Notes: generated by a model not told the origin, from the letters alone. A stretch of DNA of 32,000 nucleotides from Pirellula staleyi DSM 6068 (GCA_000025185.1 CP001848.1:300001-332000), one strand, 5' to 3'. Positions 3,342-31,731 are shown, counted from the stretch's first letter. Numbers and translations: made by a program.

Positions 3342-4112
3342 ATGGCCGACAACCCTTATGAAGCTCCTGAGCACTACGCGCAAAAGCCCGCCAAGCCAGT
3401 GATGACAGCGGGAGCGATCGTGGTCAACGTACTGGTGATCGTGGGAATAGCTGGCATGTTGGTTGCCTTACTATTGCCAGCCACTCGAGGTGCTGGTGAA
3501 GCAGCACGTCGCATGGCCTGCAGCAACAATCTCAAAATGATTGGAATTGGACTGCTGAACTATCATGATACCTATGGCGAGTTTCCACCGGCATATACCG
3601 TGGATGACCAAGGGAAGCCGCTACATAGTTGGCGCACGCTGATTCTTCCTTTCATCGAGCAGAACAAGCTTTACGAATCGATCGACCTCACCAAACCTTG
3701 GGACGATCCCGTCAACAAGCTGGCGATGGAAACACAACTTCGCGTCTTCCAATGTCCGTCGTCATCTCTGAAGGGAAATCTCACCAGTTATCTAGCTGTC
3801 GTCACTTCGCAAAGTGCGTTGCGCCCTGTGGAGTCGAAGAGCATTGTCGAGATGCCCGATGGAACCGTTTTTACCTTGCTAGTGATGGAGTTTTCGCTCG
3901 ATAAAGCGGTGCCGTGGGGCTCGCCAGAGGACGCCAACGAAGCGATGGTACTGAATTTTGGTAGCGCACCGCTCATACCTCACAACAGCGTCGCTCATGC
4001 CTTACTCGCCGACGGATCGATTCGAGCGATCCCGAAGGCAACGAGCGTTTCTACACTCTCGGCGCTCATCACGATCGATGGGAATGAGGCCTTGGATTAC
4101 GACTCGTTCTAA
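3342..4112 (+). CDS. DUF1559 / H-X9-DG pseudopilin-like protein without a recognisable prepilin leader
   Basis: LLLPATRGAGEAARRMACSNNLKMIGIGLLNYHDTYGEFPP, LILPFIEQ, KPWDDPVN, FQCPSS, and C-terminal H-NSVAHALLA-DG (H-X9-DG). The N-terminus is MADNPYEAPEHYAQKPAKPV followed by one hydrophobic helix. No G-F-T-L-x-E is present. Confidence 0.85.
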   Translation: MADNPYEAPEHYAQKPAKPVMTAGAIVVNVLVIVGIAGMLVALLLPATRGAGEAARRMACSNNLKMIGIGLLNYHDTYGEFPPAYTVDDQGKPLHSWRTLILPFIEQNKLYESIDLTKPWDDPVNKLAMETQLRVFQCPSSSLKGNLTSYLAVVTSQSALRPVESKSIVEMPDGTVFTLLVMEFSLDKAVPWGSPEDANEAMVLNFGSAPLIPHNSVAHALLADGSIRAIPKATSVSTLSALITIDGNEALDYDSF

Positions 4113-5593: not shown

Positions 5594-6994
5594 CTAGGCG
5601 ATGATCTTGGTGGCGATGTTGCCGTGGACATCGGTGAGACGGAAATCGCGACCGCTGTAGCGGTAGGTCAGCCGCGTGTGGTCGAGCCCCATCAAGTGCA
5701 GCATCGTGGCATGGAGATCGTGGATGTGCATTTTGTCGTCAGTAGCGGCGATACCGTGCTCGTCGGTCGCACCGTAACGCAGGCCACCTTTCACACCACC
5801 ACCAGCCATCCACATCGAAAAGCCGGTTGCGTTGTGGTCGCGTCCGTCGTCGTTTTGTGCATGCGGCGTGCGGCCAAACTCGCCACCCCAAACGACCAGC
5901 GTATCTTTGAGCATGTCGCGACGTTTCAAGTCTTCCAGCAGCGCGTGCATCGGCTGATCGATCGCGGTGCAGTTGGCTGTGAGCCGCGTGCGAAGTCCGT
6001 TGTGCTGATCCCAACCTGGATGCGAGAGTTCAACGAACCGGACCCCTGCTTCGCAGAAGCGACGAGCGAGCAAACATTGTCGCGCGAAGTTGTCGGTCGC
6101 TTTGTTACCGATACCATACATGTCGAGCGTTTCTTGCGATTCGTCGTCGATTTCCATCAGCTTTGGAACAGCCGACTGCATGCGAAACGCGAGTTCATAC
6201 GACTCGATAATCCCCTCGAGTTGCGGATTCACCGTGTCGCCTGAGAGGCGTTCGCGATTGATCGCTTGGACGAGGTCGAGTTGCTTGCGCTGCTGTTCGC
6301 GCGAGAGTCCGCGGCTGGCAATGTTCGGAATGGTTGCCTTGGCGAGCGATTCCCCTTCACCACCGATGCGCGTCCCTTGATAGGCGGCTGGCAGGAAGGA
6401 ACTACCGTAGTTCTGCGCACCACCGATGCGCGAGACGGGATTAAGCGTGATGAAACCAGGAAGCTCTTGGTTCTCGGTACCGAGTCCGTAGAGCACCCAC
6501 GCACCGACGCTCGGCCGCACGAACTGAAAACTGCCGGTGTGCATTTGCACGGCTGCTTGCGGATGGTTCGGCAGATCGGTGTGCAGACCGTTGAGGATGC
6601 AGAGATCGTCGGCGTTTTTGGCGAGATTCGGGAAGAGCTCGGAGATCGGCAGTCCGCTGCTGCCCGCTGGTGTGAACTTGAAGGGGGACTTCATCAGCTT
6701 GCGGCTTTTGCCCCCCTTGGCACCGACAGCGCCGGGAGATTTTCCGTCATCTTTTTCGAGCGCCGGTTTGTAGTCGAACATGTCGACGTGCGAAGGTCCT
6801 CCCTGCATGAACAGGAAGATCACTCGTTTTGCTTTGGGCTCGAAATGAGGCTGTTTGGGAAGAAGCGGATTCGCGTCGGCCTGTGTAGCACGCGCGAGAT
6901 TTGCTTCAGCCATTAAGCTACTGAGTGCGAGATATCCAAATCCGCAAGCGGAGGTGCGGAGCATGTCGCGACGAGTGAGAGGGGTGTCGAACAT
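5594..6994 (-). CDS. DUF1501 domain protein (sulfatase-like fold, Tat signal)
   Basis: Twin-arginine leader MFDTPLTRRDMLRTSACGFGYLAL. Characteristic motifs GGPSHVDMFD, HPGWDQHN, WGGEFGRTP and DGRDHN. Sits in the standard position downstream of a DUF1553 gene. Confidence 0.9.
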   Translation of the reverse strand: MFDTPLTRRDMLRTSACGFGYLALSSLMAEANLARATQADANPLLPKQPHFEPKAKRVIFLFMQGGPSHVDMFDYKPALEKDDGKSPGAVGAKGGKSRKLMKSPFKFTPAGSSGLPISELFPNLAKNADDLCILNGLHTDLPNHPQAAVQMHTGSFQFVRPSVGAWVLYGLGTENQELPGFITLNPVSRIGGAQNYGSSFLPAAYQGTRIGGEGESLAKATIPNIASRGLSREQQRKQLDLVQAINRERLSGDTVNPQLEGIIESYELAFRMQSAVPKLMEIDDESQETLDMYGIGNKATDNFARQCLLARRFCEAGVRFVELSHPGWDQHNGLRTRLTANCTAIDQPMHALLEDLKRRDMLKDTLVVWGGEFGRTPHAQNDDGRDHNATGFSMWMAGGGVKGGLRYGATDEHGIAATDDKMHIHDLHATMLHLMGLDHTRLTYRYSGRDFRLTDVHGNIATKIIA

Positions 6995-7126
6995 TGCAAA
7001 CTTCCTTGCGCGAAACCAAGTTCGCTAGCAAACTGACCTACGGAAAAAATCGAGAGAATAACGGGATATAAGAACAACGCATGAGTGCAGTGAGAGGTAC
7101 TCACCACACTCACAAAGATTGCTTGT

Positions 7127-9700
7127 TTAATAGGCGAGGCGAAATTCTGCGGTCGAAAAGAGTGCATGAACCACATCGGTCCATGCAGCTTGCTCGGCTA
7201 CTGCACTGTCACTGGCAGCTTTGCACGACTCGACATGCTCGAGCACTTTGGCAAGCTCCGCTGGCGAGGGATTGCGTGCTAGTACACGTTCAAACGCGAG
7301 TCGAGCGCGAGCTGTGTTATCGAGTCCCGACTGATTAACGATCAAGGTTGCCGTCCGCTGCGAAGCTTCTGCAACCACCGGGCTGTTCATCAGAAATAGT
7401 GCCTGAGTCGCGACAGTGGTTACGTCGCGTTGTCCCACCACCATCTCTGGATCAGCGACATCGAAAATCGATAGCACATCGGGAAGCATGCCACGTACGA
7501 GGGGCAAATAGACCGAGCGAAATTTAACGTTCGACTTCAATGCGTCGGCTTTCAGTCCACGACCAAACTCCCCTTCGCCCACTTTCGTGACTAGCGAAGC
7601 CGCAGGACGAGTGAGGTCGAGCTCACCCGAAGCTGCCAGCAAGCAGTCGCGAATCACTTCAGCTTCGAGTCGCTTGCGACTCATGTGCCAAACGAGTTTG
7701 TTATCGGGATCGACTTCATAAGCAGCGGCGCTGTGTTCGCTGGAAAGTGCATAAGCGCGGGTGAGCACCACTTCACGAACGAGTGACTTAATCGACCATT
7801 GATTTTCCATGAAGCGCGAGGCGAGATAGTCGAGCAATTCGGGATGCGTCGGAAGCTCACCCATCGCGCCGAAATTATCGACGGTTTCGACCAGCCCGCG
7901 GCCAAACAGGTGTTGCCAAACACGATTCGCAAACACGCGCGCGGTGAGTGGATTGTTTTTGCTCGTCATCCATGCAGCGAGTTGCAGACGACCACTTTGT
8001 TGCGGGTTGACGCTCGGTGCCATCGGCGTCGTGATCACGCGCACATAGCCGCGTGGAACTACATCGCCGAGGTCGGAAACTTCACCACGAATATTCACGC
8101 GCACATCGTGGATGTCGCTGGCATCGCGAACTGCCATCACAGGCTCGCCCGGAGGGGCTAGTTTTGCTTCGAGCGCAGCGATTTGGCCGCGAATTTCGGC
8201 CAGTTCTTTCGTCAAGCGATTGACGGCGGTTAGTGCTGGATTCTTCTTTTTATTCTTCGCAGACAACTTCTCTTCAGCGGTCAATTTCTTTTTCGGTTTA
8301 TCGGCAGCAGGACCAGCCTCCTGACGAGCGGCGACCAATTGTTTTTGCAGCTGCTCTTCGCTGGTGCGGAGCTGCGCGAGTTGCTTCCGCTCATCGGCCG
8401 ACAGCGTTTGTTTCTTCGCGGGATCGATGAGCGAGAGCGCCTCGCCCTTGTAGCCCGTTTGATTGTTGCCAGGCTTCACCCCTGCAAAAACTTCAGTGCT
8501 TCGAAAAATCCCGACCATCGCGTAGTACTCGGTGGTTGGAATCGGATCGAACTTGTGATCGTGACAGCGTGCGCAGGCGACACTCAGTCCGAGCACAGCG
8601 CGCGTGCTGACGTCGAGTTGCTCGTCGGCCACGTCCATCAAAAACTGTTCGCGATTCCGTTCATTCAAGCTCTTTGGACCGATTGCCAAAAAACCAGTGG
8701 CGGTGAGATGCTCGTTCTTCTCCGCGTCGTCTTTGGCGGGCAACAGATCCCCGGCCAGTTGTTCTTTCAAGAACTCGTCGTATGGCTTGTCGGCGTTAAA
8801 ACTGTCGATCACATAATCGCGATAGCGCCAGGCGTGGGGATAAGCAACGTTCCGTTCCTTGCCGGTCGATTCGCCATAGCGAGCCAGATCGAGCCAGTGA
8901 CGTCCCCAGCGTTCACCAAACTGTGGCGAGGCGAGGAGACGATCGACCACAGCGGCGCGAGCTTTGAGATTCGAGTTGGCCTGGAAAGCTGCGATCTCTT
9001 CATGCGTCGGAAGTAGACCGGTGAGATCGAGTGTGACTCGCCGCAGCCAGGTGATGGGATCGGCATCTTTGACTGGGGCAAGATTCGCGGCTTCGAGTTG
9101 CGCGAGAATGTAGCGATCGATTTCGCTGATGGCCCAGGTAGGATTTTTCACGGCTGCAGGAGGGACCACTTTGACAGGCTGGAACGACCAAAACTTGCGG
9201 GCGTCGGCGAGATTGATTTTGCTTCCGACGGTGGTGGCCTGCGCCGCGCGAGGATCGGGCGCGCCACGCGAAATCCAATGTTCAAAGTCGGCCAGCACGC
9301 TGTCGGGGAGTTTCTTCCCCGGAGGCATCTCCATGCCGTTCTCGTGACGCATCGCTTGCAGCAACAGGCTTGCTGCAGCATCGCGCGCCACCACCGCTGG
9401 TCCCGAATCGCCACCCTTGCGAATGCCGAGCTTCGTATCGACACGCAGCCCCCCCTTCACTTCCTTGCTGCTGGCCGAGTGGCACTGGTAGCAGTTCGAA
9501 ACGAGGACAGGGCGAATCTTCTTCTCGAAAAAATCGAGGTCGGCGGCTGTGATGCGGCCATCCGCTTTCGCCGTAGGATCGCTTTCAGCAGCACTCCCTG
9601 GCGTGACAACACCGAGCGTGAGCAGCACAAAAGCCAAAACGGCATGGCGTGTGTAGTACAAAAAAGTCATGGCCACGGTTGGCGTCCTTGAAGACAGCAC
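7127..9700 (-). CDS. PSCyt1 / DUF1549 / DUF1553 domain protein (planctomycete cytochrome-c-like)
   Basis: N-terminal signal peptide, CYQCHS (CxxCH) motif, [12 protein letters not shown] (DUF1549 hallmark), a K-rich coiled-coil insert, and a long DUF1553-type C-terminus. The start is GTG 9700 or ATG 9670. Confidence 0.9.
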
Positions 9701-10065
9701 GAAGTTCTTGAGGAACTGGGGGGACTGCAGGGAGCGGCACTATTTTTTCTTTGCAATTTACTTTGCAAACGCCCCGCGAGAGGTAGTCTTTGAGCCGTAA
9801 ATTCGCCCCCAGGAAATAGATGCGCCGCGAGATGCGAATATTGTGGATCGGACAAGTGCCTGCGCCACGTTTTGCAACCAACACGCTGAACGAATTTTGA
9901 GTGCCTACGCTCCACCAGCCCTCGCGCTGGGCCTGTGGCGTATAATCGCTCGTGCGATCGCCTCCGAAGCCTTGCGAGCCATTTCACGCTAAACGTTTCA
10001 AAGAAAATCACTTACAGCGCCGCCGCCAATCACTTGAGCCTGCCAGCCGCAAAGTAATTCACGCC

Positions 10066-10560
10066 ATGTCGTTTCAATTTCAATGTCCGCAGGGGCACTT
10101 GCTCGAAGGCGAGCCATCGCAAGCGGGTCAGCAGTGCGTTTGCCCGATGTGCGGCATGCTGTTTTTGATCCCGCAGCCAATCGCTCAGCCAGAGGGACCG
10201 CAGTTTGCGATTAATCCCGGGGGAGGAGCTCCAGGACAGCCCGCTGCACCTCCGTTTGATCCTTCGAAGCCGCAAGAGCCCGAGCTATTCCACATCCCCT
10301 GCCCCAACGGACACGAGCTTGAAACACCCGCCGAGATGCTCGACCAAGAGGTCCTCTGCCCGCAATGTCAGGTGCAGTTTCGACTGCGCAAGCGGGATAG
10401 CGTGGAGTTCAAAAAGAAGAAGGAAGAGCAAGACCGCATCCGCGAAATCAAGCTCGGCAACGCCTGGCTCAACTGGGCCATTGCCGCAGCGGTGCTAGTT
10501 GGCATCGGTCTCGTGGGGCTGATCATCGCATCGCAAATGGGACGTACCCCACCGCCATAA
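10066..10560 (+). CDS. Double zinc-ribbon protein with C-terminal transmembrane anchor
   Basis: MSFQFQCPQGH...CVCPMCG..LIP and IPCPNGH...CPQCQ form two ribbons. They are followed by a K/E-rich helix and a hydrophobic anchor, WAIAAAVLVGIGLVGLIIA. The track ORF starts at GTG 9952, but those 38 aa look non-coding (R/K/P-rich). ATG 10066 is preferred. Confidence 0.7.
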   Translation: MSFQFQCPQGHLLEGEPSQAGQQCVCPMCGMLFLIPQPIAQPEGPQFAINPGGGAPGQPAAPPFDPSKPQEPELFHIPCPNGHELETPAEMLDQEVLCPQCQVQFRLRKRDSVEFKKKKEEQDRIREIKLGNAWLNWAIAAAVLVGIGLVGLIIASQMGRTPPP

Positions 10561-10617
10561 AACCCAACGCTGCGGGGGGGGACTTTTAGACGATTGGGCT
10601 ACGAGCTTACGTGCAGC

Positions 10618-11391
10618 CTACTTGGTGGGCTTCTTCACATCTTTGTCGAGTTCGAACGAGCCACGAATCTCGACTTTCAAGCTCCCGTCGTTATCCGCAG
10701 GATTCGTGTCATACATCCGCAGCGACAAGCGACCACTGCGAGGCGTTTGAAACTGCTTTCCTGCTCCGACGACAAACGGCTTCACTTCTTTGGGGTCTCC
10801 CCCTTCGATCCTGCCAATCAAACAGCCAGGATTAAAATCGCGTAATTCCTCGGGAATTGCCAGTCCATCGGCATTGGTTTCCGCTTGCAGATGGAAGGTC
10901 CAAGTTCCGCTGACGGTGATGGTGACCGGCCGGCCGTAGATGAGGGTGAGACCACAATCTTGCCACCCTTCGTTCGCGTTGATAGTGACGACATGGGATT
11001 GCGCCGAGGCTTCTTTATTGAGCATCTCCGCAAGTTTGGACTTGGCTGGAGCATACTGCGGGACCAGCTTGAGAATCTCCTCGTACACTTGTCGCGCTTT
11101 GCCCCAGTCCTTATCCCCTTCGTACTCGTTGCCGAGTTTCTCGGCCTTCTTCACGAAGTCCAGGTGGAGCGCGAGCAAACGCTGATCGTCGGGAAGTGGA
11201 CGTGGCGGCTCTTCCTTCGCTTTCTTTTTGTCGCGCTCCTGCGCGTGGGCCACGAGGCTGCTCTCAAAACCATTCCACGGCTCGAGTGCTGAGTACGAAA
11301 TCACCGCCAGCAGCAGCGCCACGATCGACTTGAAGCTCATGGTCGAGCGCATCGTGCGCGAAGCGATTCGGGAGAGGATCGAGGAAACCAT
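10618..11391 (-). CDS. Secreted protein: signal peptide, helical (TPR-like) region, C-terminal LecA/PA-IL-like beta-sandwich domain
   Basis: Signal-like MSFKSIVALLLAVISYSA. The C-terminal GRPVTITVSGTW...NPGCLIGRIEGG...GRLSLRMYDTNPADNDGSLKVEI parallels by eye the GDVITIVAAGWA...FCGALVMKIG...[25 protein letters not shown] pattern of Pseudomonas LecA. The start could be Met 1, 14 or 18. Confidence 0.65.
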   Translation of the reverse strand: MVSSILSRIASRTMRSTMSFKSIVALLLAVISYSALEPWNGFESSLVAHAQERDKKKAKEEPPRPLPDDQRLLALHLDFVKKAEKLGNEYEGDKDWGKARQVYEEILKLVPQYAPAKSKLAEMLNKEASAQSHVVTINANEGWQDCGLTLIYGRPVTITVSGTWTFHLQAETNADGLAIPEELRDFNPGCLIGRIEGGDPKEVKPFVVGAGKQFQTPRSGRLSLRMYDTNPADNDGSLKVEIRGSFELDKDVKKPTK

Positions 11392-11602
11392 GATGAGATC
11401 TCGAGAGGCGTTTTACATCGTCCACGCACGATTGCCGTCTGGCGACGGACCTGCGATGGACTAGTTCTGATTCGTTTCAACTACCTGCAGTTTATTCCAA
11501 GAAGGGGCGACAAGTCGTGGTTTTCGTCAACTTTTGAACTTCGAGCCCCAGCCGACGCTGTTGCTGGAAAACCTCCACACGAGTGCTGAATCGCCCCCAC
11601 GA

Positions 11603-11620
11603 TTTGCGTATACTCGCAAA
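11603..11620 (+). promoter_or_regulatory. Palindrome enclosing a -10-like hexamer upstream of the first zinc-ribbon/DUF1559 gene
   Basis: TTTGCG TATACT CGCAAA has 6-bp perfect arms around TATACT. It lies 118 bp upstream of ATG 11732. The -35 is only weak (CTGAAT). Confidence 0.25.
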
Positions 11621-11731
11621 ACTTCCAATTTGGCCCCCTCGCCCATCAGCCTCGCGCTCTTCTTCCGCTGCTAGTGCGACATCAGGCTTCTCCTTCTGCT
11701 TTCAACCCCTCTCCCCTGATCGAGTTTCTAC

Positions 11732-12652
11732 ATGACGATCCAGTTCTCCTGCCCTCACTGTGCCAACCCAATGTCGGTCGACGATGAGTTTGCGGGACGA
11801 ACCGGCCCCTGCAAGTCTTGTGGTCAGTCGATCACCATACCGGCTTTGGGAAACACCTTTGGATTCCAGATCAACGCGGGACCGAGTCCTGCCAAATCAT
11901 CCACACCGCGGAAGAAAAGTAGCCTCGGACTGTTCTTGATGCTGGGCGGCATTGCTGCTGTCGGTGCGCTGCTGATATTCGGCGTGGGTATGGCCTACCT
12001 TAACGCCCGAGCAACCACGAATCGCTTGATTGCCTCCAACAATCTCAAGCAACTTGTCATCGCGATGCACAACTATCACGACCAATACGACGCCTTTCCA
12101 CCCGCTGTGGTCTGCGACAGCGAAGGCAAACAACTCTACAGCGGCACTGTGTTGCTGCTCCCCTTTTTGCAGACTCCCCAAGGTGATCTCCTCGCCTCGA
12201 TGTTCGATCTATCGCGCGCGTGGGACGATCCAGCGAACATCGGCGTGAGCCAGATACCTCTCGACCTCATGATCGATCCCAGTGCTCCACGCACCACGGC
12301 GGCCGCGACCAACTATTTCTTTGTCACCCCCGACTACAAACGGGCCATCCCGGCCGGCATGGAAGCTCCCGGAAGAGTTGAATTAGGGACAGGCCCCGAA
12401 GCTTCCCTGAGGCTTCAAGACTTTACGGACGGAACATCGAACTGCTACCTGATTGTCGATGCGATCATTCCCAACCAAAGTTGGGCCGAGCCGATGCCTC
12501 TCCTAGCCAGTGAGCTGCAAAACGGCTTTCCGCCATCGCCGCATCCCGAATTCACTCTCGTCGCGATGGCCGATGGTTCGGTCCAACAAATCGAGCACTC
12601 CACCCCTGCGGCTCAAATTTATAGTGCGGCTGTTTTCAATGATGGCCAGTAA
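11732..12652 (+). CDS. Zinc-ribbon / TM / DUF1559 (H-X9-DG) fusion protein, paralog 1
   Basis: MTIQFSCPHC...CKSCGQSITIP, a linker, helix LGLFLMLGGIAAVGALLIFGVGMAYL, then SNNLKQLVIAMHNYHDQYDAFPP, LLLPFLQ, WDDPAN, DGTSN, SWAEP, and H-PEFTLVAMA-DG. Confidence 0.85.
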   Translation: MTIQFSCPHCANPMSVDDEFAGRTGPCKSCGQSITIPALGNTFGFQINAGPSPAKSSTPRKKSSLGLFLMLGGIAAVGALLIFGVGMAYLNARATTNRLIASNNLKQLVIAMHNYHDQYDAFPPAVVCDSEGKQLYSGTVLLLPFLQTPQGDLLASMFDLSRAWDDPANIGVSQIPLDLMIDPSAPRTTAAATNYFFVTPDYKRAIPAGMEAPGRVELGTGPEASLRLQDFTDGTSNCYLIVDAIIPNQSWAEPMPLLASELQNGFPPSPHPEFTLVAMADGSVQQIEHSTPAAQIYSAAVFNDGQ

Positions 12653-12656
12653 CGAG

Positions 12657-12731
12657 CGAATAGTCCCCTGTTGAAATTCACTCCCCTCCATCAGCGTAAG
12701 CTGGGCGGGGAGAGTTGCCGGGGACTATTCG
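12657..12731 (+). terminator. Long compound hairpin immediately after paralog 1 (terminator, attenuator or mRNA-stability element)
   Basis: The outer 12-bp perfect stem pairs CGAATAGTCCCC (12657-12668) with GGGGACTATTCG (12720-12731). The inner 11-bp stem, with 2 mismatches, pairs CACTCCCCTCC (12679-12689) with GGCGGGGAGAG (12704-12714). It starts 5 nt after the stop codon and is followed by ATTTCGCTT. Confidence 0.3.
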
Positions 12732-12838
12732 ATTTCGCTTACCAAATCGAGTACGATCTGCGGTGGGTGGTTAGCCAGCTTCTCGAGCCTGCTCGCAGAA
12801 GGGCCTTCTCCAATCTTTGATCTCACCGAGGTAGTCGT

Positions 12839-13738
12839 ATGCCAATCGCATTTTCGTGTCCCAACTGCGGCAAGCAGATGAATGTGCCCGATCAATACGC
12901 GGGACAAACCGGACCATGTGCGGCTTGTGGCAAAACGATGACGATCCCAGGAGGCTTTGCACCACCTCCACCCGCCGGCTACTCCGGTGTGGGACCAGCA
13001 GCCCCACCAGCCTCGAAAAGCAGTGGTGCACTACCGGTGGTGCTAATCGTCCTGGTGGTGGTCGGGATTGGCGTTCTCGGCTGTGGTGGTGTGATGGCCG
13101 CGCTTCTCATCCCTGCCGTCTCGAGCGCCCGCCAAGCTGCTAAGGCGATGCAATCGTCGAACAACCTCAAGCAAATCACCCTGGCGATGCACAACTATCA
13201 CGATGTCTACGGATCGCTGCCGCCAGCAGTCGTGCGCGATGCTTCAGGGCAGCCACTCTACAGTGGCCGCGTGCTGCTCCTGCCATTCCTCGAGCAATCC
13301 TATCTCTACGATAATTTTGATAAGAACAAAGCCTGGAACGACCCAGCCAATACGATGGTGAGTCAAACCGTCCTCAAGGTGTTCCAAGACCCTTCGACCG
13401 ACAACCCCATGAGCCCCGCGAGCAACTATTTCTTTATCGTGGGCCCGGATGCATTGTTTCCTGAGGATGGCTCGGCACATAGCTTTGCCCAAATCACCGA
13501 TGGGACAAGCTTAACGCTGGCGTTTATCAACGCGAACATTCCGAACAACAGTTGGGCCGAGCCGGTGGAAATGCATCAGGATGCGCTGGCTGCTGGACTT
13601 CCAGCTTCTCCTTATCGGCAAGGTGTCTTCACTGCCTTTGCCGATGGTTCGGTTCGCGCCCTGCCGCCAACCACCTCGCCCACCGATTTGCGCGCCATGA
13701 CCACGCGCAACGGCGGCGAACCTGTCATGATTCCCTAA
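12839..13738 (+). CDS. Zinc-ribbon / TM / DUF1559 fusion protein, paralog 2 (Tyr in place of the H of H-X9-DG)
   Basis: MPIAFSCPNC...CAACGKTMTIP, a P-rich linker, a hydrophobic helix, LLIPAVSSARQAAKAMQSSNNLKQITLAMHNYHD, LLLPFLEQ, WNDPAN, DGTS, SWAEP, and Y-RQGVFTAFA-DG. GAGG lies 8 nt upstream of the ATG. Confidence 0.85.
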   Translation: MPIAFSCPNCGKQMNVPDQYAGQTGPCAACGKTMTIPGGFAPPPPAGYSGVGPAAPPASKSSGALPVVLIVLVVVGIGVLGCGGVMAALLIPAVSSARQAAKAMQSSNNLKQITLAMHNYHDVYGSLPPAVVRDASGQPLYSGRVLLLPFLEQSYLYDNFDKNKAWNDPANTMVSQTVLKVFQDPSTDNPMSPASNYFFIVGPDALFPEDGSAHSFAQITDGTSLTLAFINANIPNNSWAEPVEMHQDALAAGLPASPYRQGVFTAFADGSVRALPPTTSPTDLRAMTTRNGGEPVMIP

Positions 13739-13858
13739 ACAAAAACTTGTCCCAAGCTTTAACCGTCCAGCGTTTCGACGAGCCAGCTTGCTTCGACCGC
13801 GCCGCGCAACTGCCTTCCGACTCGCTTCTCCTCTTAACGATCTCTTCTAGGTGCCCCG

Positions 13859-14758
13859 ATGACCATCACGTTCCGCTGTCCTCATTGTGGTAAAGAAACG
13901 CAGGTTGCCGATCAGTATGCGGGACAATCGGGACCCTGCGCTGCTTGCGGCAAGACGATCACCATTCCAGCCCCTGGGCACCCCCTCTCGGGCCCGCCGC
14001 TGCCTGGCTTCTCTGCTGCTCCTCTGCCGCCACCCAAGTCCTCCTCGGGAGGATCGACCCTCATCCTCGTGCTGGTGGGTGTGATCGGTGGGTTGGTGGT
14101 CTGCGGTGGCATTCTCGTTGCCCTGCTTCTCCCGGCTGTTCAAGCTGCACGCGAAGCAGCACGACGATCACAGTCGACAAACAACATGCGGCAAATTGGC
14201 CTGGCGATTCACAACTATCACGACACCTACAATTGCTTGCCACCCGCTGTGATCTACGACAGCAGCGGTCGGCCGATGTGCAGTGGCTTCGTCGCTCTGC
14301 TGCCATTCCTGGAGCAAGGGGCGCTGGCCAACCGATGGGACTACAGCAAACCGTGGAACGATCCGGTGAACATGCCGCTTTCGATGACGGTCATTCCCTA
14401 CCTGAAAGATCCCAGCAGCACGAATCCCAATCCGGCTCACACCGATTATTTGTTTATCGATGGGCCCGGCACAGCACTCGATATCACGAATGGTTACAAC
14501 CGAATCTCTTCGGTCACCGACGGCCTGTCGAACACCATGGCTGTTGTCGAAGCCAAGACCAGCAACGTTAGCTGGGCTGAGCCGGGATCATTTAACATTG
14601 CTCAGTTCGCGGGTGGATTGCCTCCAGGCAATCACCGCCGGGGAAATATTGTGCTGATCCTCGACGGTTCGGTGCGATTTATCGACTCCAATTCTGCCTC
14701 GCCTGAAATGCTCCACGCCCTGTCGACCATGGATGGTGGCGAGACGGTGGCCTACTAA
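13859..14758 (+). CDS. Zinc-ribbon / TM / DUF1559 (H-X9-DG) fusion protein, paralog 3
   Basis: [10 protein letters not shown]...[11 protein letters not shown], a P-rich linker, [84 protein letters not shown], and [12 protein letters not shown]. Confidence 0.85.
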
Positions 14759-14812
14759 GCTGATCTCAGCCAGCTAAGTGATAACGCCAACCAATCTACT
14801 GATCGATACGCG

Positions 14813-16078
14813 TTACCGATCGATTTGACGGAGCGCGGCGAGCAGGCGTTCGACCTCGTGATGCGTGTTGTAGTGCACCATGCCGACACGTAGCATGCCA
14901 GCGGGCTCGCGTCCGAGTCGCTCGCTGAGATTCAAGGCGTAGTAGTTGCCGTGCCATGCAAACAGGCCCCGCTCGCCCAACTCGATCGCAAGTTGTCGTG
15001 GCGTAATCGTAGTGTGAATGAGCGAGAAAGTAGCGACGCGCTCCTCGAGTCGCGCTAGATCGGTGATTCCCATCACACGATAGTGCGAAAGCTCACGCAT
15101 CCCGCGCAAGAATTGCTCTGCGAGCGAGCGCTCGTGGGCTGCGATCCGGGCATAGCTTTGCGCGAGCTTTTCGCGGCGCGATTGCTGGCCGGATGAAACG
15201 CCCTCCACAGCGGCATGCAAATTGGCCAGGTATTCGATGCACGCCAGCACTCCAGCAATCGATTCGTGGCTCTGCGTGCCGGTCATCCATTTGCCCGGAA
15301 GATCGGTGGGACTGGGGCGCACTTTGTAAGCCTCGAGCGACTCGAGTAGTGCCCGTTTACCCCACAGAATGCCCGTGTGAGGGCCAAAGAACTTGTACGC
15401 GCTGCAGGCCAGAAAATCGCAGCCGATTTGCTGAACGTCGGGAAGTTGATGCGGCGACAGATGAACTGCATCGATGTAGACGAGTGCTCCCCCGCGCTGG
15501 GCTCGCGCTGTGATTTCGCGAATCGGGTTCACACCCCCGGTGCTGTTCGAAGCAGCTCCCACCGCCACCAGCCGCGTGCGCGGCGAGAGGATGGCATCGA
15601 GCTGCGACAAATCGAGCGTGAGGTCCTCGTCGCGCACATCGATCCAGCGAACGGTCACTCCCGCATCGCGCGCGGCGAGTACCCACGGGCTTACGTTGGC
15701 ATCGTGATCGAGCCGCGTCACGACGATTTCGTCCCCCGGTTTCCAGGTTCGCGCAATCGCGCGGCTGATGGCGAACGTCAGCGAGGTCATATTCTGACCA
15801 AAGATGATCTCGCCAGGATCGCTCGCGCCGACGAACTCCGCGCACGCCAGGTGGGCCGCATCGAGCATCGCATCGCTGGCGATCGCGGTGGCAAATAGTC
15901 CACCATGATTCGCGCTGTTCTTCGACAGATAATGCACCATCGCATCGATCACTGGCTGCGGCACCTGTGTCCCCGCAGGGCCATCGAAGTACGCCGCAGG
16001 TTCCCCCGCCACTTCCACCGCGAGAGCAGGAAACTGCGCACGAATCTTGGTTAGCTGCTCGTGAGTAAATCCGTTCAC
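14813..16078 (-). CDS. Class V aminotransferase-fold (SufS/CsdA-like) PLP enzyme lacking the catalytic cysteine
   Basis: PLP-lysine context ACSAYKFFGPHTGILWG. The C-terminus GLFAWHGNYYALNL...VGMVHYNTHHEVERL aligns by eye with E. coli SufS GIAVRTGHHCAMPL...LAMYNTHEEVDRL. GTG start at 16078 with AGGAA 7 nt upstream. Confidence 0.85.
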   Translation of the reverse strand: MNGFTHEQLTKIRAQFPALAVEVAGEPAAYFDGPAGTQVPQPVIDAMVHYLSKNSANHGGLFATAIASDAMLDAAHLACAEFVGASDPGEIIFGQNMTSLTFAISRAIARTWKPGDEIVVTRLDHDANVSPWVLAARDAGVTVRWIDVRDEDLTLDLSQLDAILSPRTRLVAVGAASNSTGGVNPIREITARAQRGGALVYIDAVHLSPHQLPDVQQIGCDFLACSAYKFFGPHTGILWGKRALLESLEAYKVRPSPTDLPGKWMTGTQSHESIAGVLACIEYLANLHAAVEGVSSGQQSRREKLAQSYARIAAHERSLAEQFLRGMRELSHYRVMGITDLARLEERVATFSLIHTTITPRQLAIELGERGLFAWHGNYYALNLSERLGREPAGMLRVGMVHYNTHHEVERLLAALRQIDR

Positions 16079-27532: not shown

Positions 27533-29242
27533 ATGCGATTATCAGCAGTTTTTTTCGTGGCAGCGATGCTAGCAAGCGTGCTCGGCAACAGCTCGCGCGC
27601 GATGGCCGACGATACGTACCCCTTCGAAGCCTTCATCGTCGCCGACGAGGCCGACATCTACAGCGGGCCGGGGCGCCGCTTCTACACCACACAAAAGTTG
27701 CCACGCGGCACTCGCATTGAAGTCTTCCGCCGCGACGTCGCCGGCTGGCTCGCCATTCGTCCTCCCGAAGAGAGTTTCAGCTGGGTTGTGGCCGATCATG
27801 TGGAAGTTGGCGACGAGCCCAACTTAGCCATCGTCGTGACACAAACACCAAGCTGGATTGGGACCGAAATTGAGCGGGTTCGCGAACACAAACATCATCT
27901 GATGCTGGAGCCGGGGGAGGAGCTTTCGATCCTCGGCAAACGGCAAGTTCCACAAGAGGATGGCGAGTCGCAAACGTGGCTGAAAATCGCGCCACCGGCC
28001 GGAGAATTCCGCTGGGTTCATCCGCGCGATATCAGCCGCAGTAAGCCCGAGGAACTCCAGGCAGCAGCGCAGCAGTTGGCCGATGGTCGGCGGCTCGATC
28101 GGGCCTTGGATTTGGATAGCGACGCGCGAAATCAGCTGGGGATGGTCGAAGTGCCACTTCCCCGCCGAGAGCAACTCGAAGAAGTGGAAAATGAGTCGCG
28201 CAGCGACGTGCAGTTGGCATCGGCCGAAATTCCGCTCGATGACTACGAACAACCGGCCACAGAGCAACAACCGGCTGGGCGAATGCCCAGCGGCGCGCGG
28301 CATGCCGAGGAGCATGGCAGCGGCATTCAGTTGACCGATCTCGAGCCCACCACGAAAAAACCACTAGCCGCGCGCGACATGATTTCTCAGCGTTTTCCTG
28401 TTCAGCCTGCGGCCTATCAAGGGGAGCCCTCGCTCGATAGTGCATCCCCTATTTCGTCCGACGGTTTCCGCCCTCGGACAGGTTCGCGACCACGCGCATC
28501 TGACATTGTCACCACCCCCACAAGCACACCTCCCACCACGCGCTCGCGTTCGATGACACCGATCAACCGCACCACTGGCGCACCGGCACTGCTGGGGGAT
28601 GCCGCAGCCGACGAGCGAGTTGCTACTCGCACAAGCTCCGTACCAGCAGCATCACGCGCGAGTGAAGCACTCACATCATCGACCGGCAGTTCTATCGACG
28701 ATCAGTTGGCTGCCATCGATGTCGAATTGTCGCTGATGCTTGCCCGCGATCGGCGCGAATGGAATCTGATTGCGCTCGAGCGCCAAACCCTAGCCATCGT
28801 CGATGGGGCCGAGAACCCTGTCGATCGTGGCCGTGCTCGCTTGATGCTCGAAAAGATCCGCGATTTTGCGACGAAGTTCAAACTCGATACGCTGGCCGAT
28901 TTGGGAGTCGATTCAGCCACAGGATCGACGTCGAAGATTCCTGATGCACCGGTATCGGCCGCTGCTCCTGCAACAGCAGCAAGCGCTGCGACCGACCCTA
29001 AGTACGATGCTGTCGGTTGGCTCAAGCCGGTCGTATCGCGGCAGCATCAAGCGGCCCCTTTTGCGATTGTCGATAGCACGGGCCGACCAATCTGCTTTGT
29101 CTCGCCATCGCCGGGGCTGAATCTGAATCGTTACGTCAACAAGCAAGTGGGGCTTTACGGCCGCCGCGGTTATCTCGAAGCCCTTAAAACGCCGCACGTC
29201 ACTGCCGAACGCGTGATCAGCCTCGAGCGTCATTTGCGCTAG
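27533..29242 (+). CDS. Secreted protein with two N-terminal bacterial SH3-like domains, a long disordered S/T/P/A-rich region and a conserved-looking C-terminal domain
   Basis: Signal peptide MRLSAVFFVAAMLASVLGNSSRAMA. ADIYSGPGRRFYTTQKLPRGTRIEVFRRDVAGWLAIRP is SH3b-like, with a second similar unit (LEPGEELSILGKR...QTWLKIAP). The last ~75 aa are globular (GWLKPVV...FAIVDSTGRPICFVSP...YVNKQVGLYGRRG). Confidence 0.7.
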   Translation: MRLSAVFFVAAMLASVLGNSSRAMADDTYPFEAFIVADEADIYSGPGRRFYTTQKLPRGTRIEVFRRDVAGWLAIRPPEESFSWVVADHVEVGDEPNLAIVVTQTPSWIGTEIERVREHKHHLMLEPGEELSILGKRQVPQEDGESQTWLKIAPPAGEFRWVHPRDISRSKPEELQAAAQQLADGRRLDRALDLDSDARNQLGMVEVPLPRREQLEEVENESRSDVQLASAEIPLDDYEQPATEQQPAGRMPSGARHAEEHGSGIQLTDLEPTTKKPLAARDMISQRFPVQPAAYQGEPSLDSASPISSDGFRPRTGSRPRASDIVTTPTSTPPTTRSRSMTPINRTTGAPALLGDAAADERVATRTSSVPAASRASEALTSSTGSSIDDQLAAIDVELSLMLARDRREWNLIALERQTLAIVDGAENPVDRGRARLMLEKIRDFATKFKLDTLADLGVDSATGSTSKIPDAPVSAAAPATAASAATDPKYDAVGWLKPVVSRQHQAAPFAIVDSTGRPICFVSPSPGLNLNRYVNKQVGLYGRRGYLEALKTPHVTAERVISLERHLR

Positions 29243-30831: not shown

Positions 30832-31731
30832 ATGGCCGAGAACAACAGCCTGCTGCCAGATTCGACTGATCGCTCGCGTGAACCGTCGAGGAGTATGTCC
30901 TTGGATCGCCGAACTTTTGTCAGTTCCTCGGTGGTGGCTTTAGCAACTGCGATGTCGCGCACGCTGTGGGCCTCTCCCGAACCGCAGGCCGATAGCAGTC
31001 GACAATCGCGCGAAGATGCGCTCGCTGTGCTGCCTCTGAGCAAACTCAACGCAGCGACGCAGCGGAAAATTGTCGATGTCGTCGATCATCCGAGTGTCTA
31101 TCGCCGCATGCCCGCGAAGCAAATCGACTGCGATCCCGATCTCTACTTGTTCCTGATTCGCCATCCGGAAGTGGTGGTGAACATCTGGAAGATCATGGGC
31201 GTGTCGAATATGCGTGCTGAACGTGTCGCCCCCTTCCAGTGGAAAGGTGACGACGGCGCAGGAACGCTGTGCGATGTCGAGCTTTGCTACGGCACGCAAG
31301 ATATGCATCTGATCTACAGCGAAGGCTTTTACGAAGGCCCGCTCTTTCGCAAGAAGATGAACGCCAAGTGCGTGCTGCTCTTGCAAAGTGAGTACGAGCG
31401 CGGCACCGATGCCAAAACCTACATTGGCAATCGACTCGACGTCTTTTTGCTCATCGAGAACGCAGGGGTCGATCTCATTGCGAAGACACTTCAGCCATTA
31501 GTGGGAAGTGTAGCGGATGCGAACTTTCAGGAGACGACCAAGTTCCTGAGCAAGCTGTCGCAGACTGCTGAACGAAACGGGCCAGGCATGCAGAAGTTGG
31601 CCGAGCGTCTCGAGGATGTAAAGCCCGAGGTGCAGGCCGAGTTTGCCCGCGTGAGTGCTGCCGTGCATGCTCGCGCTGCTTCGCGTGAAGGTGGCGTGGC
31701 ACAAGCGCAGTCGCAGCAGCGCACGCGATAA
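30832..31731 (+). CDS. Hypothetical protein with possible Tat-type signal
   Basis: Long open frame with coding-like codon usage. Internal Met at 30895 gives MSLDRRTFVSSSVVALATAMSRTLWA, which has a twin-Arg, a hydrophobic core and A-x-A-like ending. I recognise no family. Confidence 0.65.
   Translation: MAENNSLLPDSTDRSREPSRSMSLDRRTFVSSSVVALATAMSRTLWASPEPQADSSRQSREDALAVLPLSKLNAATQRKIVDVVDHPSVYRRMPAKQIDCDPDLYLFLIRHPEVVVNIWKIMGVSNMRAERVAPFQWKGDDGAGTLCDVELCYGTQDMHLIYSEGFYEGPLFRKKMNAKCVLLLQSEYERGTDAKTYIGNRLDVFLLIENAGVDLIAKTLQPLVGSVADANFQETTKFLSKLSQTAERNGPGMQKLAERLEDVKPEVQAEFARVSAAVHARAASREGGVAQAQSQQRTR

Follow-up and report, generated by a model that had tools for sequence, protein, structure and literature searches.

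DUF1559 proteins with a predicted N-terminal zinc ribbon and no class III prepilin signal: a tandem triplet in Pirellula staleyi and its family

Three tandem genes and their predicted architecture

In a stretch of 32,000 nucleotides from Pirellula staleyi DSM 6068 (CP001848.1:300001-332000; hereafter the window, with positions counted from its first letter), three neighbouring genes encode proteins in which a DUF1559 body is preceded by a predicted zinc ribbon, and in which the class III prepilin signal is missing. DUF1559 is among the largest paralogous families of planctomycetes. The literature describes it as a very large paralogous family of unknown function (PMC10632474, PMC2754498), with 68 copies in Planctopirus limnophila, two of them essential (PMC10632474), and 74 in Rhodopirellula baltica (PMC2754498). 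A preliminary description of the window had reported three same-strand open reading frames (ORFs) of 306, 299 and 299 amino acids, and we located them exactly where it had placed them (paralogs 1 to 3; Table 1). Their public entries, which match exactly, are annotated as hypothetical or DUF1559 proteins only.

The family assignment is clear. PF07596 (DUF1559/SBP_bac_10), which has a gathering cutoff of 23.3 bits, matches all three proteins far above that value, as had been expected: 83.3 bits for paralog 1 (E 3.8e-23), 116.3 bits for paralog 2 (E 3.4e-33) and 128.1 bits for paralog 3 (E 8.4e-37). The body motifs NNLKQ/NNMRQ, HNYHD, LLPFLEQ, W(N/D)DPxN and DG(T/L)SN can likewise be seen in the alignment. 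Two other motifs that had been ascribed to all the copies are found in some of them. By eye, the C-terminal H-X9-DG is present in paralogs 1 and 3, while paralog 2 has Tyr for His (Y-X9-DG); across the family, the His and the Gly are each conserved in at least 90% of members and the Asp is invariant. The corresponding model, TIGR04294, scores only with paralog 2 (15.5 bits versus a cutoff of 19), all three proteins being below the cutoff. A 14-residue body motif is intact in paralog 3 only; it reads LIPAVSSARQAAKA in paralog 2 and has diverged to MAYLNARATTNR in paralog 1. Residues 68-127 of paralog 2 also gave sub-threshold GspG and PilV matches.

The N-terminal Cys4 motifs (CPHC..CKSC, CPNC..CAAC and CPHC..CAAC) were all read in the alignment, and the identities that had been counted by hand over this region (27 of 37 residues between paralogs 2 and 3, and 21 of 37 between paralogs 1 and 3) were upheld on recount. 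All four cysteines are kept in every one of 206 unique family members, and AlphaFold predicts a four-strand fold. Because of this invariance and this fold, we assign the module as a predicted zinc ribbon.

AlphaFold2 models were built for paralogs 1 and 3, the latter with a 119-sequence family alignment. In the model of paralog 3 (mean predicted local distance difference test score, pLDDT, 90.6; predicted template modelling score 0.73), four short strands within residues 2-35 are followed by disorder at 46-64, an unbroken helix at 65-124 and an alpha/beta head with six strands. Paralog 1 (pLDDT 85.3) shows the same layout, with an extra 20 residues in its head (204-223) that are predicted to be disordered. 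Thus, the succession of ribbon, disordered tether, long pilin-type helix and head is predicted with high confidence for these two copies, and a single architecture is common to all three, paralog 2 being placed by alignment. The N-terminal extension, put at about 64-65 residues in the preliminary description, measures 63-64 residues ahead of the hydrophobic helix, and the AlphaFold helix begins at residue 65 in both modelled copies.

Table 1. Coordinates of the three genes, of their parts and of other features in the window
Feature	Position	Strand	Description
Paralog 1 (Psta_0236)	11732..12652	+	306 aa; ADB14932 (exact match); most divergent copy
Paralog 1, predicted ribbon, residues 1-37	11732..11842	+	CPHC-X16-CKSC; four predicted strands 2-6, 13-17, 24-26, 33-35, pLDDT >90
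Paralog 1, tether	11843-11923	+	
Paralog 1, pilin-type helix, residues 65-119	11924..12088	+	AlphaFold; hydrophobic first ~23 residues, predicted membrane span
Paralog 2	12839..13738	+	299 aa; ADB14933 (exact match)
Paralog 2, predicted ribbon, residues 1-37	12839..12949	+	CPNC-X16-CAAC; placed by alignment
Paralog 2, tether	12950-13027	+	
Paralog 2, hydrophobic segment and remaining long helix, ~residues 64-123	13028..13207	+	limits inferred by alignment with paralog 3
Paralog 3	13859..14758	+	299 aa; ADB14934 (exact match); nearest to family consensus
Paralog 3, predicted ribbon, residues 1-37	13859..13969	+	CPHC-X16-CAAC; four-strand AlphaFold fold
Paralog 3, Gly/Pro/Ser-rich tether, residues 38-64	13970..14050	+	ends PPKSSSGG; pLDDT <50 at 46-64
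Paralog 3, pilin-type alpha-1 helix, residues 65-124	14051..14230	+	single 60-residue AlphaFold helix; predicted membrane span 65-87
Paralog 3, DUF1559 head, residues 125-299	14231..14755	+	PF07596; WNDPVN, DGLSNT, SWAEP, H-X9-DG; pLDDT 95-98
DUF1559 protein, 256 aa	3342-4112	+	fourth in the window; without ribbon, without class III signal
DUF1501 + PSCyt1/PSCyt2/PSD1 gene pair	5594-9700	-	syntenic with ribbon-DUF1559 cluster in L001 and L024, not elsewhere
Psta_0234, 164 aa	10066..10560	+	two CPxGH...CPxC ribbons and C-terminal membrane helix; looks tail-anchored
257-aa protein	10618..11391	-	divergently transcribed; N-terminal hydrophobic signal-like segment, helical part, beta-rich C-terminal part; no Pfam family
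569-aa ORF	27533-29242	+	no Pfam family at E<=0.001
299-aa ORF	30832-31731	+	no Pfam family at E<=0.001

The helix has what a type IV pilin or pseudopilin fold calls for, namely a long alpha-1 (about 50 residues in that fold), a hydrophobic N-terminal part and equivalents of Gly14 and Pro22, and in paralog 3 it weakly resembles the N-terminal helix of geopilin, PilE1, gonococcal pilin and PilA4. A Foldseek search of the PDB with paralog 3 returned no match at E<=0.001, the pilin matches spanning only ~62-70 columns, and neither this search nor the PDB profile searches brought up a solved relative of the DUF1559 head. They gave no confirmation that the head, beyond the helix, is pilin-like, with an alpha-1C packed on an antiparallel beta sheet.

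Canonical DUF1559 neighbours read R(G/A)↓FTL(V/I)ELLVVIAIIGIL(I/V)ALLLPA(V/I)QAAREAARR. That the three proteins lack this class III signal, as first noticed by eye, is borne out by profile hidden Markov models: PF07963 (N_methyl) and TIGR02532 give nothing at E<=1 for any of them, whereas the control, a canonical DUF1559 gene taken from a related locus, reaches 31.3 and 27.1 bits, respectively, and 30.4 bits with the HX9DG model. The absence extends to the family, for which motifs were counted over 187 of the 206 unique members and positions in the Pro22 register over 188. Thus, G-F-T-L-x-E occurs in 0 of 187, and an acid within the 28 residues ahead of LLPAV in 1 of 187. In register with the invariant Pro22, none of the 188 has an acid where Glu5 would be (frequency 0.000), in line with the earlier remark that Glu5 is absent from all three copies; G(-1) and F1 are taken by V/I/A, and 79% and 100% of members keep the equivalents of Gly14 and Pro22, respectively. 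Since Glu5 is never acidic and G(-1) and F1 are replaced, while Gly14 and Pro22 are kept, the segment is, as judged from its sequence, a pilin alpha-1 helix without the features for cleavage, methylation and filament assembly. A 10-residue stretch of paralog 3 had been taken for a vestige of the signal. The stretch proved not to be conserved: at 34% identity, the first half of the helix is the part that varies most, with V/I/A at G(-1) and F1. Furthermore, none of the 269 proteins examined joins the Cys4 motif to a class III site, and the ribbon family contains no internal class III site that an internal start could recreate.

The tether is variable, except for a recurrent motif, [YF]-A-([YF]-A)-P, after which P-x-K-S-S-G is often seen. 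Where composition-preserving shuffling gave 7.6 +/- 2.6, this motif was counted in 78 of the 188 members, a number inflated by shared ancestry; it is possibly a linear binding motif. The tethers in the window carry looser versions of it (GFSAAP, ASKSSG and FGFQ...PAKSS). The idea of a GYF ligand was dropped, as PPG[YFWML] is found in 11 of 188 tethers versus 2.7 expected, too rare to build on.

A large Pirellulales family and a widely shared ribbon

The three genes are no local oddity. Among the 120 best database matches to paralog 3, 115 span 99-100% of it, with 46-59% identity bar one 99%-identical cluster-mate, and most are 283-300 amino acids long. Their N-termini are near-invariant across the ribbon region, with a choice of S or T after the first 23 letters, and at their source they are called 'DUF1559 domain-containing protein' or, by automatic naming, 'PulG / RPC12-RpoP'. 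A scan with a ribbon profile, using one genome per species, yielded 298 confirmed ribbon-encoding stretches. The 76 kept loci are almost all labelled as Pirellulales or other planctomycetes (Pirellulaceae, Thermoguttaceae, Bremerella, Anatilimnocola, Ca. Anammoximicrobium). In 79 loci we counted 112 ribbon ORFs, 97 of which encode complete ribbon-helix-DUF1559 proteins; single copies occur in 54 loci, two copies in 11 and three in seven, and tandem pairs or triplets make up 18 of the 79. Ribbon-DUF1559 proteins are thus a large Pirellulales family with hundreds of members. Two loci stand in bins of other labels, L055 (CAWCAN010000009.1) in Chloroflexia and L068 (JABMRB010000142.1) in Candidatus Nealsonbacteria; these are probably binning errors, given that all other matches are planctomycete.

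Conservation differs sharply along the protein. Pairwise identity in the family alignment is 0.79 for the ribbon, 0.34 for the tether, 0.34 for the membrane span, 0.79 for the periplasmic half of the helix and 0.53 for the head; as the alignment was drawn from the best matches to paralog 3, these absolute values are biased, but the contrast between regions is not. The best-conserved parts are, therefore, the ribbon and the helix segment common to canonical DUF1559 proteins.

An old duplication under selection, with strong divergence at synonymous sites, had been proposed for the triplet, and the numbers agree. Amino-acid identity between paralogs is 0.39-0.48 and nucleotide identity 0.51-0.52. 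The proportion of synonymous differences (pS) is 0.66-0.79, which corresponds to a synonymous divergence (dS) from 1.6 to saturated, versus a nonsynonymous divergence (dN) of 0.53-0.63 overall; for the ribbon alone, dN between paralogs is 0.17-0.30 and dS is largely saturated. In a neighbour-joining tree, the three P. staleyi copies are scattered, and the triplets of three other loci (L012, L056, L044) pair off by position across species. In a crude neighbour-joining tree from the bodies only, six canonical DUF1559 proteins fall inside the ribbon group. As a separate observation, the ribbon codons of paralogs 1 and 3 (11732-11845 versus 13859-13972) have a pS of 0.475 and a third-position identity of 0.63, compared with a pS of 0.66 for the whole genes. 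Over only 38 codons, this lower synonymous divergence could be due to chance or to past gene conversion.

The ribbon reaches well beyond DUF1559. Out of 1.84 billion cluster representatives, 10,537 matched a 38-residue ribbon profile at E<=1e-3, and 737 did so at E<=1e-10. The best 149 of the 10,537 include 52 DUF1559 fusions, 43 proteins with several ribbons and membrane helices (up to nine matched stretches), 20 multi-ribbon proteins in which no helix was found, and 15 one-ribbon proteins with another one- or two-helix membrane tail. Near-identical copies stand at the N-terminus of a DUF4870 protein (L007) and of a DUF4190 protein (L062), and a GYF_2+DUF4190 protein (L044) begins with a more divergent one that this profile also matches (E 4e-8). 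By these profile matches, the ribbon is a mobile module that also sits on unrelated membrane proteins, one small domain being common to many membrane protein families in Pirellulales. In some of the matched proteins (P0121, P0123, P0142 and others), up to nine ribbon copies precede a single C-terminal membrane helix and no Pfam family is recognized.

The literature on DUF1559 that we searched holds nothing on the ribbon variant, on Psta_0234/0236/0237/0238 or on H-X9-DG in planctomycetes. Thus, although the sequences are already annotated in public genomes, there appears to be no description of this architecture as a family, of the missing signal or of the common ribbon.

Relation to known systems and proposed mode of action

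Among known systems, the family can be compared first with the canonical planctomycete DUF1559 proteins (PF07596 with PF07963/TIGR02532 and TIGR04294), which have the same body, NNLKQ...NYHD helix segment, Gly14/Pro22 and, as read by eye, C-terminal H-X9-DG (Y-X9-DG in paralog 2). They begin, however, with a short basic leader and G↓FTLVELLVV, where the ribbon family has a 37-residue Cys4 ribbon and a tether, and no G(-1), F1 or E5. GspG, PilE and PilA resemble it in the long N-terminal alpha-1 with a hydrophobic first third, in Gly14/Pro22, in having a globular head and in the weak helix matches. Unlike them, the ribbon family is devoid of the class III signal and Glu5, carries a folded N-terminal domain, presumably cytoplasmic, and has a head of ~175 residues with no significant match to a solved pilin.

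For the ribbon itself, the only PDB matches covering both knuckles are the ZitP zinc finger, the best Foldseek match (2nb9; with the paralog 3 ribbon, Foldseek probability 0.97, TM-score 0.63 and E 0.35; profile E 0.019) and the GltJ/AgmX ribbon (7zok; profile E 0.047). Profile matches to C2H2 zinc fingers (Aart, consensus finger) are stronger, but were set aside because they cover only the 'YxCPxCGKxFS' knuckle. To our knowledge, PopZ, the partner of the ZitP ribbon, has no known link to Planctomycetes. ZitP of Caulobacter crescentus is a bitopic protein whose cytoplasmic N-terminal ribbon binds PopZ and whose periplasmic domain is needed for pilus biogenesis (PMC5182065, PMC5182063). It shares with the present proteins, if their predicted topology is right, a ~37-residue cytoplasmic N-terminal CXXC-Xn-CXXC ribbon, one membrane helix and a periplasmic domain; it differs in that its ribbon is a zinc_ribbon_5 (PF13719) with X19 rather than X16 spacing, and its periplasmic domain is DUF3426 rather than a pilin-like DUF1559. 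In GltJ (AgmX) of Myxococcus xanthus, the ribbon acts in the cytoplasm as a switch element, binding MglB as well as its own linker; the same paper remarks that ribbon-GYF modules are common among planctomycetes, and mentions them there on membrane receptors (PMC11135422). The likeness here is a cytoplasmic N-terminal ribbon, a flexible linker and a membrane-embedded component, with a weak profile match over the full length of the ribbon. But GltJ runs ribbon-linker-GYF-membrane helix, while the three paralogs have no GYF, a tether of only ~27 residues and an unrelated periplasmic part.

How might such proteins work? The computation itself shows the domain content, the absence of the class III signal, the pattern of conservation and the spread of the family; from these data we infer an N-in topology, zinc binding, lack of cleavage, and docking of a partner. 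Each gene would encode a single-pass inner-membrane protein with a DUF1559 pilin-like core that is not a prepilin. The first 37 residues would fold as a cytoplasmic Cys4 zinc ribbon, joined by a disordered tether of ~27 residues to a pilin-type helix of 55-60 residues, whose N-terminal third would serve as an uncleaved signal-anchor. The remaining helix and the DUF1559 head would be in the periplasm and act as in canonical paralogues, and the ribbon would be a protein-docking handle tying the periplasmic head to a cytoplasmic partner, as in ZitP and GltJ. Because G(-1), Phe1 and Glu5 are missing, neither normal prepilin-peptidase cleavage nor N-methylation nor filament extraction is expected, and the protein should stay anchored. 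Since many other membrane proteins of Pirellulales begin with this ribbon, its partner is probably a common hub. Finally, conservation in the periplasmic half of the helix (NNLKQ...HNYHD) equals that seen in canonical DUF1559 proteins, so the anchored proteins probably still contact the targets of the canonical pseudopilin-like paralogues. On balance we lean towards this proposal, that is, N-in, uncleaved and permanently anchored pilin-like proteins with a ribbon for docking a conserved partner in the cytoplasm, probably one shared with other ribbon-headed membrane proteins, and hold it to be somewhat the better bet.

Several observations weigh against it. Zinc-ribbon models had been suggested as a check on the N-terminal module, and none of those in Pfam or NCBIfam reaches its cutoff in the three paralogs; PF13717 (E 0.11 and 0.78) and TIGR02098 (E 0.39) remain below it, so that, by these curated models, the ribbon falls outside the MJ0042-type/zinc_ribbon_4-5 group (PF13717, PF13719, TIGR02098). 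The similarities to ZitP and GltJ are weak as well (E 0.02-0.35) and no proof of family membership. The positive-inside rule is of no help, the periplasmic flank AAREAARR being itself basic; for this reason, the N-in topology is drawn from prepilin homology and from the expectation that a Cys4-zinc domain is cytoplasmic. No conserved partner gene stands beside the ribbon-DUF1559 genes across the 79 loci. Lastly, a Gly/Ser-rich run abuts the membrane span: Gly is the last residue before the span in 109 of 187 members, and G, S or T lies directly ahead of the hydrophobic core in 164 of 187.

Such a run makes cleavage by a tolerant peptidase conceivable, and with it a prepilin with a giant leader, in which ribbon and tether would be cut off at the run, freeing the ribbon to the cytoplasm and leaving a mature pseudopilin in the membrane. 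The retained Gly14 and Pro22 of the pilin helix would fit, as would a sister DUF1559 subfamily with a long conserved leader ahead of a true class III site. We nonetheless consider it distinctly unlikely. Not one of the 187 sequences has G-[F..]-T-L-x-E; the Pro22 register puts V/I/A at G(-1) and F1 and never an acid at Glu5; N_methyl and TIGR02532 are silent where the control is positive; the N-terminal half of the helix, as the least conserved, offers no recognizable cleavage motif; and a ribbon and a class III site are never joined in the 269 proteins. An artefact of annotation, with the true start internal and the ribbon untranslated or a decaying relic, has nothing in its favour that we could find, and strikes us as extremely improbable in view of the missing internal class III site, the cysteines invariant in 206 homologues, the low dN of the ribbon (0.17-0.30) beside a largely saturated dS, and the 115 of 120 best matches that align over 99-100% of paralog 3.

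Two further readings keep the protein anchored and differ in what the ribbon does. A receptor or sensor had been suggested in the preliminary description. Many anti-sigma factors have a cytoplasmic zinc domain, one membrane helix and a periplasmic domain. The ribbon-DUF1559 proteins, which show the same combination and a strongly conserved ribbon, might likewise be anti-sigma factors or one-component receptors, the head binding a periplasmic ligand and the ribbon holding and releasing a transcription factor. This we regard as unlikely: no His stands four residues ahead of the first CXXC, hence no H-x3-C-x2-C zinc-binding anti-sigma (ZAS) motif, and the predicted domain is an all-beta ribbon rather than the helical domain of zinc-binding anti-sigma factors; DUF4870 and DUF4190 membrane domains, which have no sensor part, bear the same ribbon; and the idea is weakened by the lack of a conserved neighbour, as no regulator, sigma factor or transporter recurs next to the genes across the 79 loci. 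The other reading, a plain tethered binding protein whose head binds a solute or polymer in the periplasm and whose ribbon is a folding or topogenic cap with no partner, seems to us equally unlikely. It would agree with a head that retains all DUF1559 hallmark residues, with the lack of a partner gene, and with a precedent for a class III N-terminus joined to solute binding, the Sulfolobus bindosome, whose sugar-binding proteins carry a class III signal (PMC3047682). In Pfam, DUF1559 is filed as SBP_bac_10. The comparison is an analogy only; in the bindosome, the class III peptidase does cleave the proteins, and Bas proteins assemble them. Against a passive cap stand the conservation of the ribbon, among the highest in the protein (79% versus 53% for the head), its near-unchanged reuse on unrelated membrane proteins, which goes beyond the needs of a cap, and the absence of a recurrent transporter, one ABC ATPase-like ORF family being present in 8 of the 79 loci.

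Returning to the anchored protein with a docking ribbon, it may be extended, at the price of becoming an unlikely conjecture, to the ribbon as an 'address tag' for one Pirellulales hub and to ribbon-DUF1559 as the membrane-fixed base, nucleator or stopper of pseudopilus-like assemblies. If true, this would give a pilin-type structure in the periplasm that is connected, by its own subunits, across the membrane to the cytoplasm; we know of no described type IV filament system that has one. As for significance, the ribbon variant offers an experimental handle, because identifying the ribbon's partner and the location of the proteins could reveal the role of DUF1559 heads in the periplasm. The proposal would also imply that a pilin-type helix is reusable as a permanent membrane anchor. 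We expect it to be a moderate surprise for specialists in type IV filaments, and a practical way into the DUF1559 problem.

Neighbouring genes and a fourth DUF1559 protein

Gene order around the triplet is shared with Anatilimnocola aggregata (L001), where DUF1501, PSCyt/PSD1, a two-ribbon tail-anchored protein and a triplet follow one another as in the window. The two-ribbon protein is Psta_0234, whose orthologue is directly upstream of that triplet (L001, 7538-8005) and which was found in 2 of the 79 loci. Its first ribbon aligns end to end with the family ribbon profile, at only 5.3 bits, and it is possibly an associated gene. Orthologues of the 257-aa protein adjoin family genes in four other loci (L002, L008, L014, L067; E 1e-42 to 1e-84), a recurrence within a subclade. 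Other candidates from the neighbourhood survey were discarded: the largest 'cluster' of neighbours in the 79 loci proved to be an artefact of antisense ORFs, and the remaining recurrent neighbours reflect local subclade synteny and not a universal partner. A scan of 9700-15000 for promoters and terminators gave counts not above those of shuffles.

The fourth DUF1559 protein of the window (3342-4112) has relatives with an extension of another kind. They carry a long conserved leader, M-x-x-NPY[ED]SP[ED]T, followed after ~12 residues by a class III site, G↓F[RT]L[VI]ELL; NPY..P is present in 78 of 120. The G-F-x-L-x-E site has been lost from the copy in the window and from P0271 and P0272, the two relatives nearest to it. 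With this NPY-leader subfamily existing beside the ribbon family, conserved cytoplasmic extensions at the N-terminus of DUF1559 proteins would be of two kinds at least.

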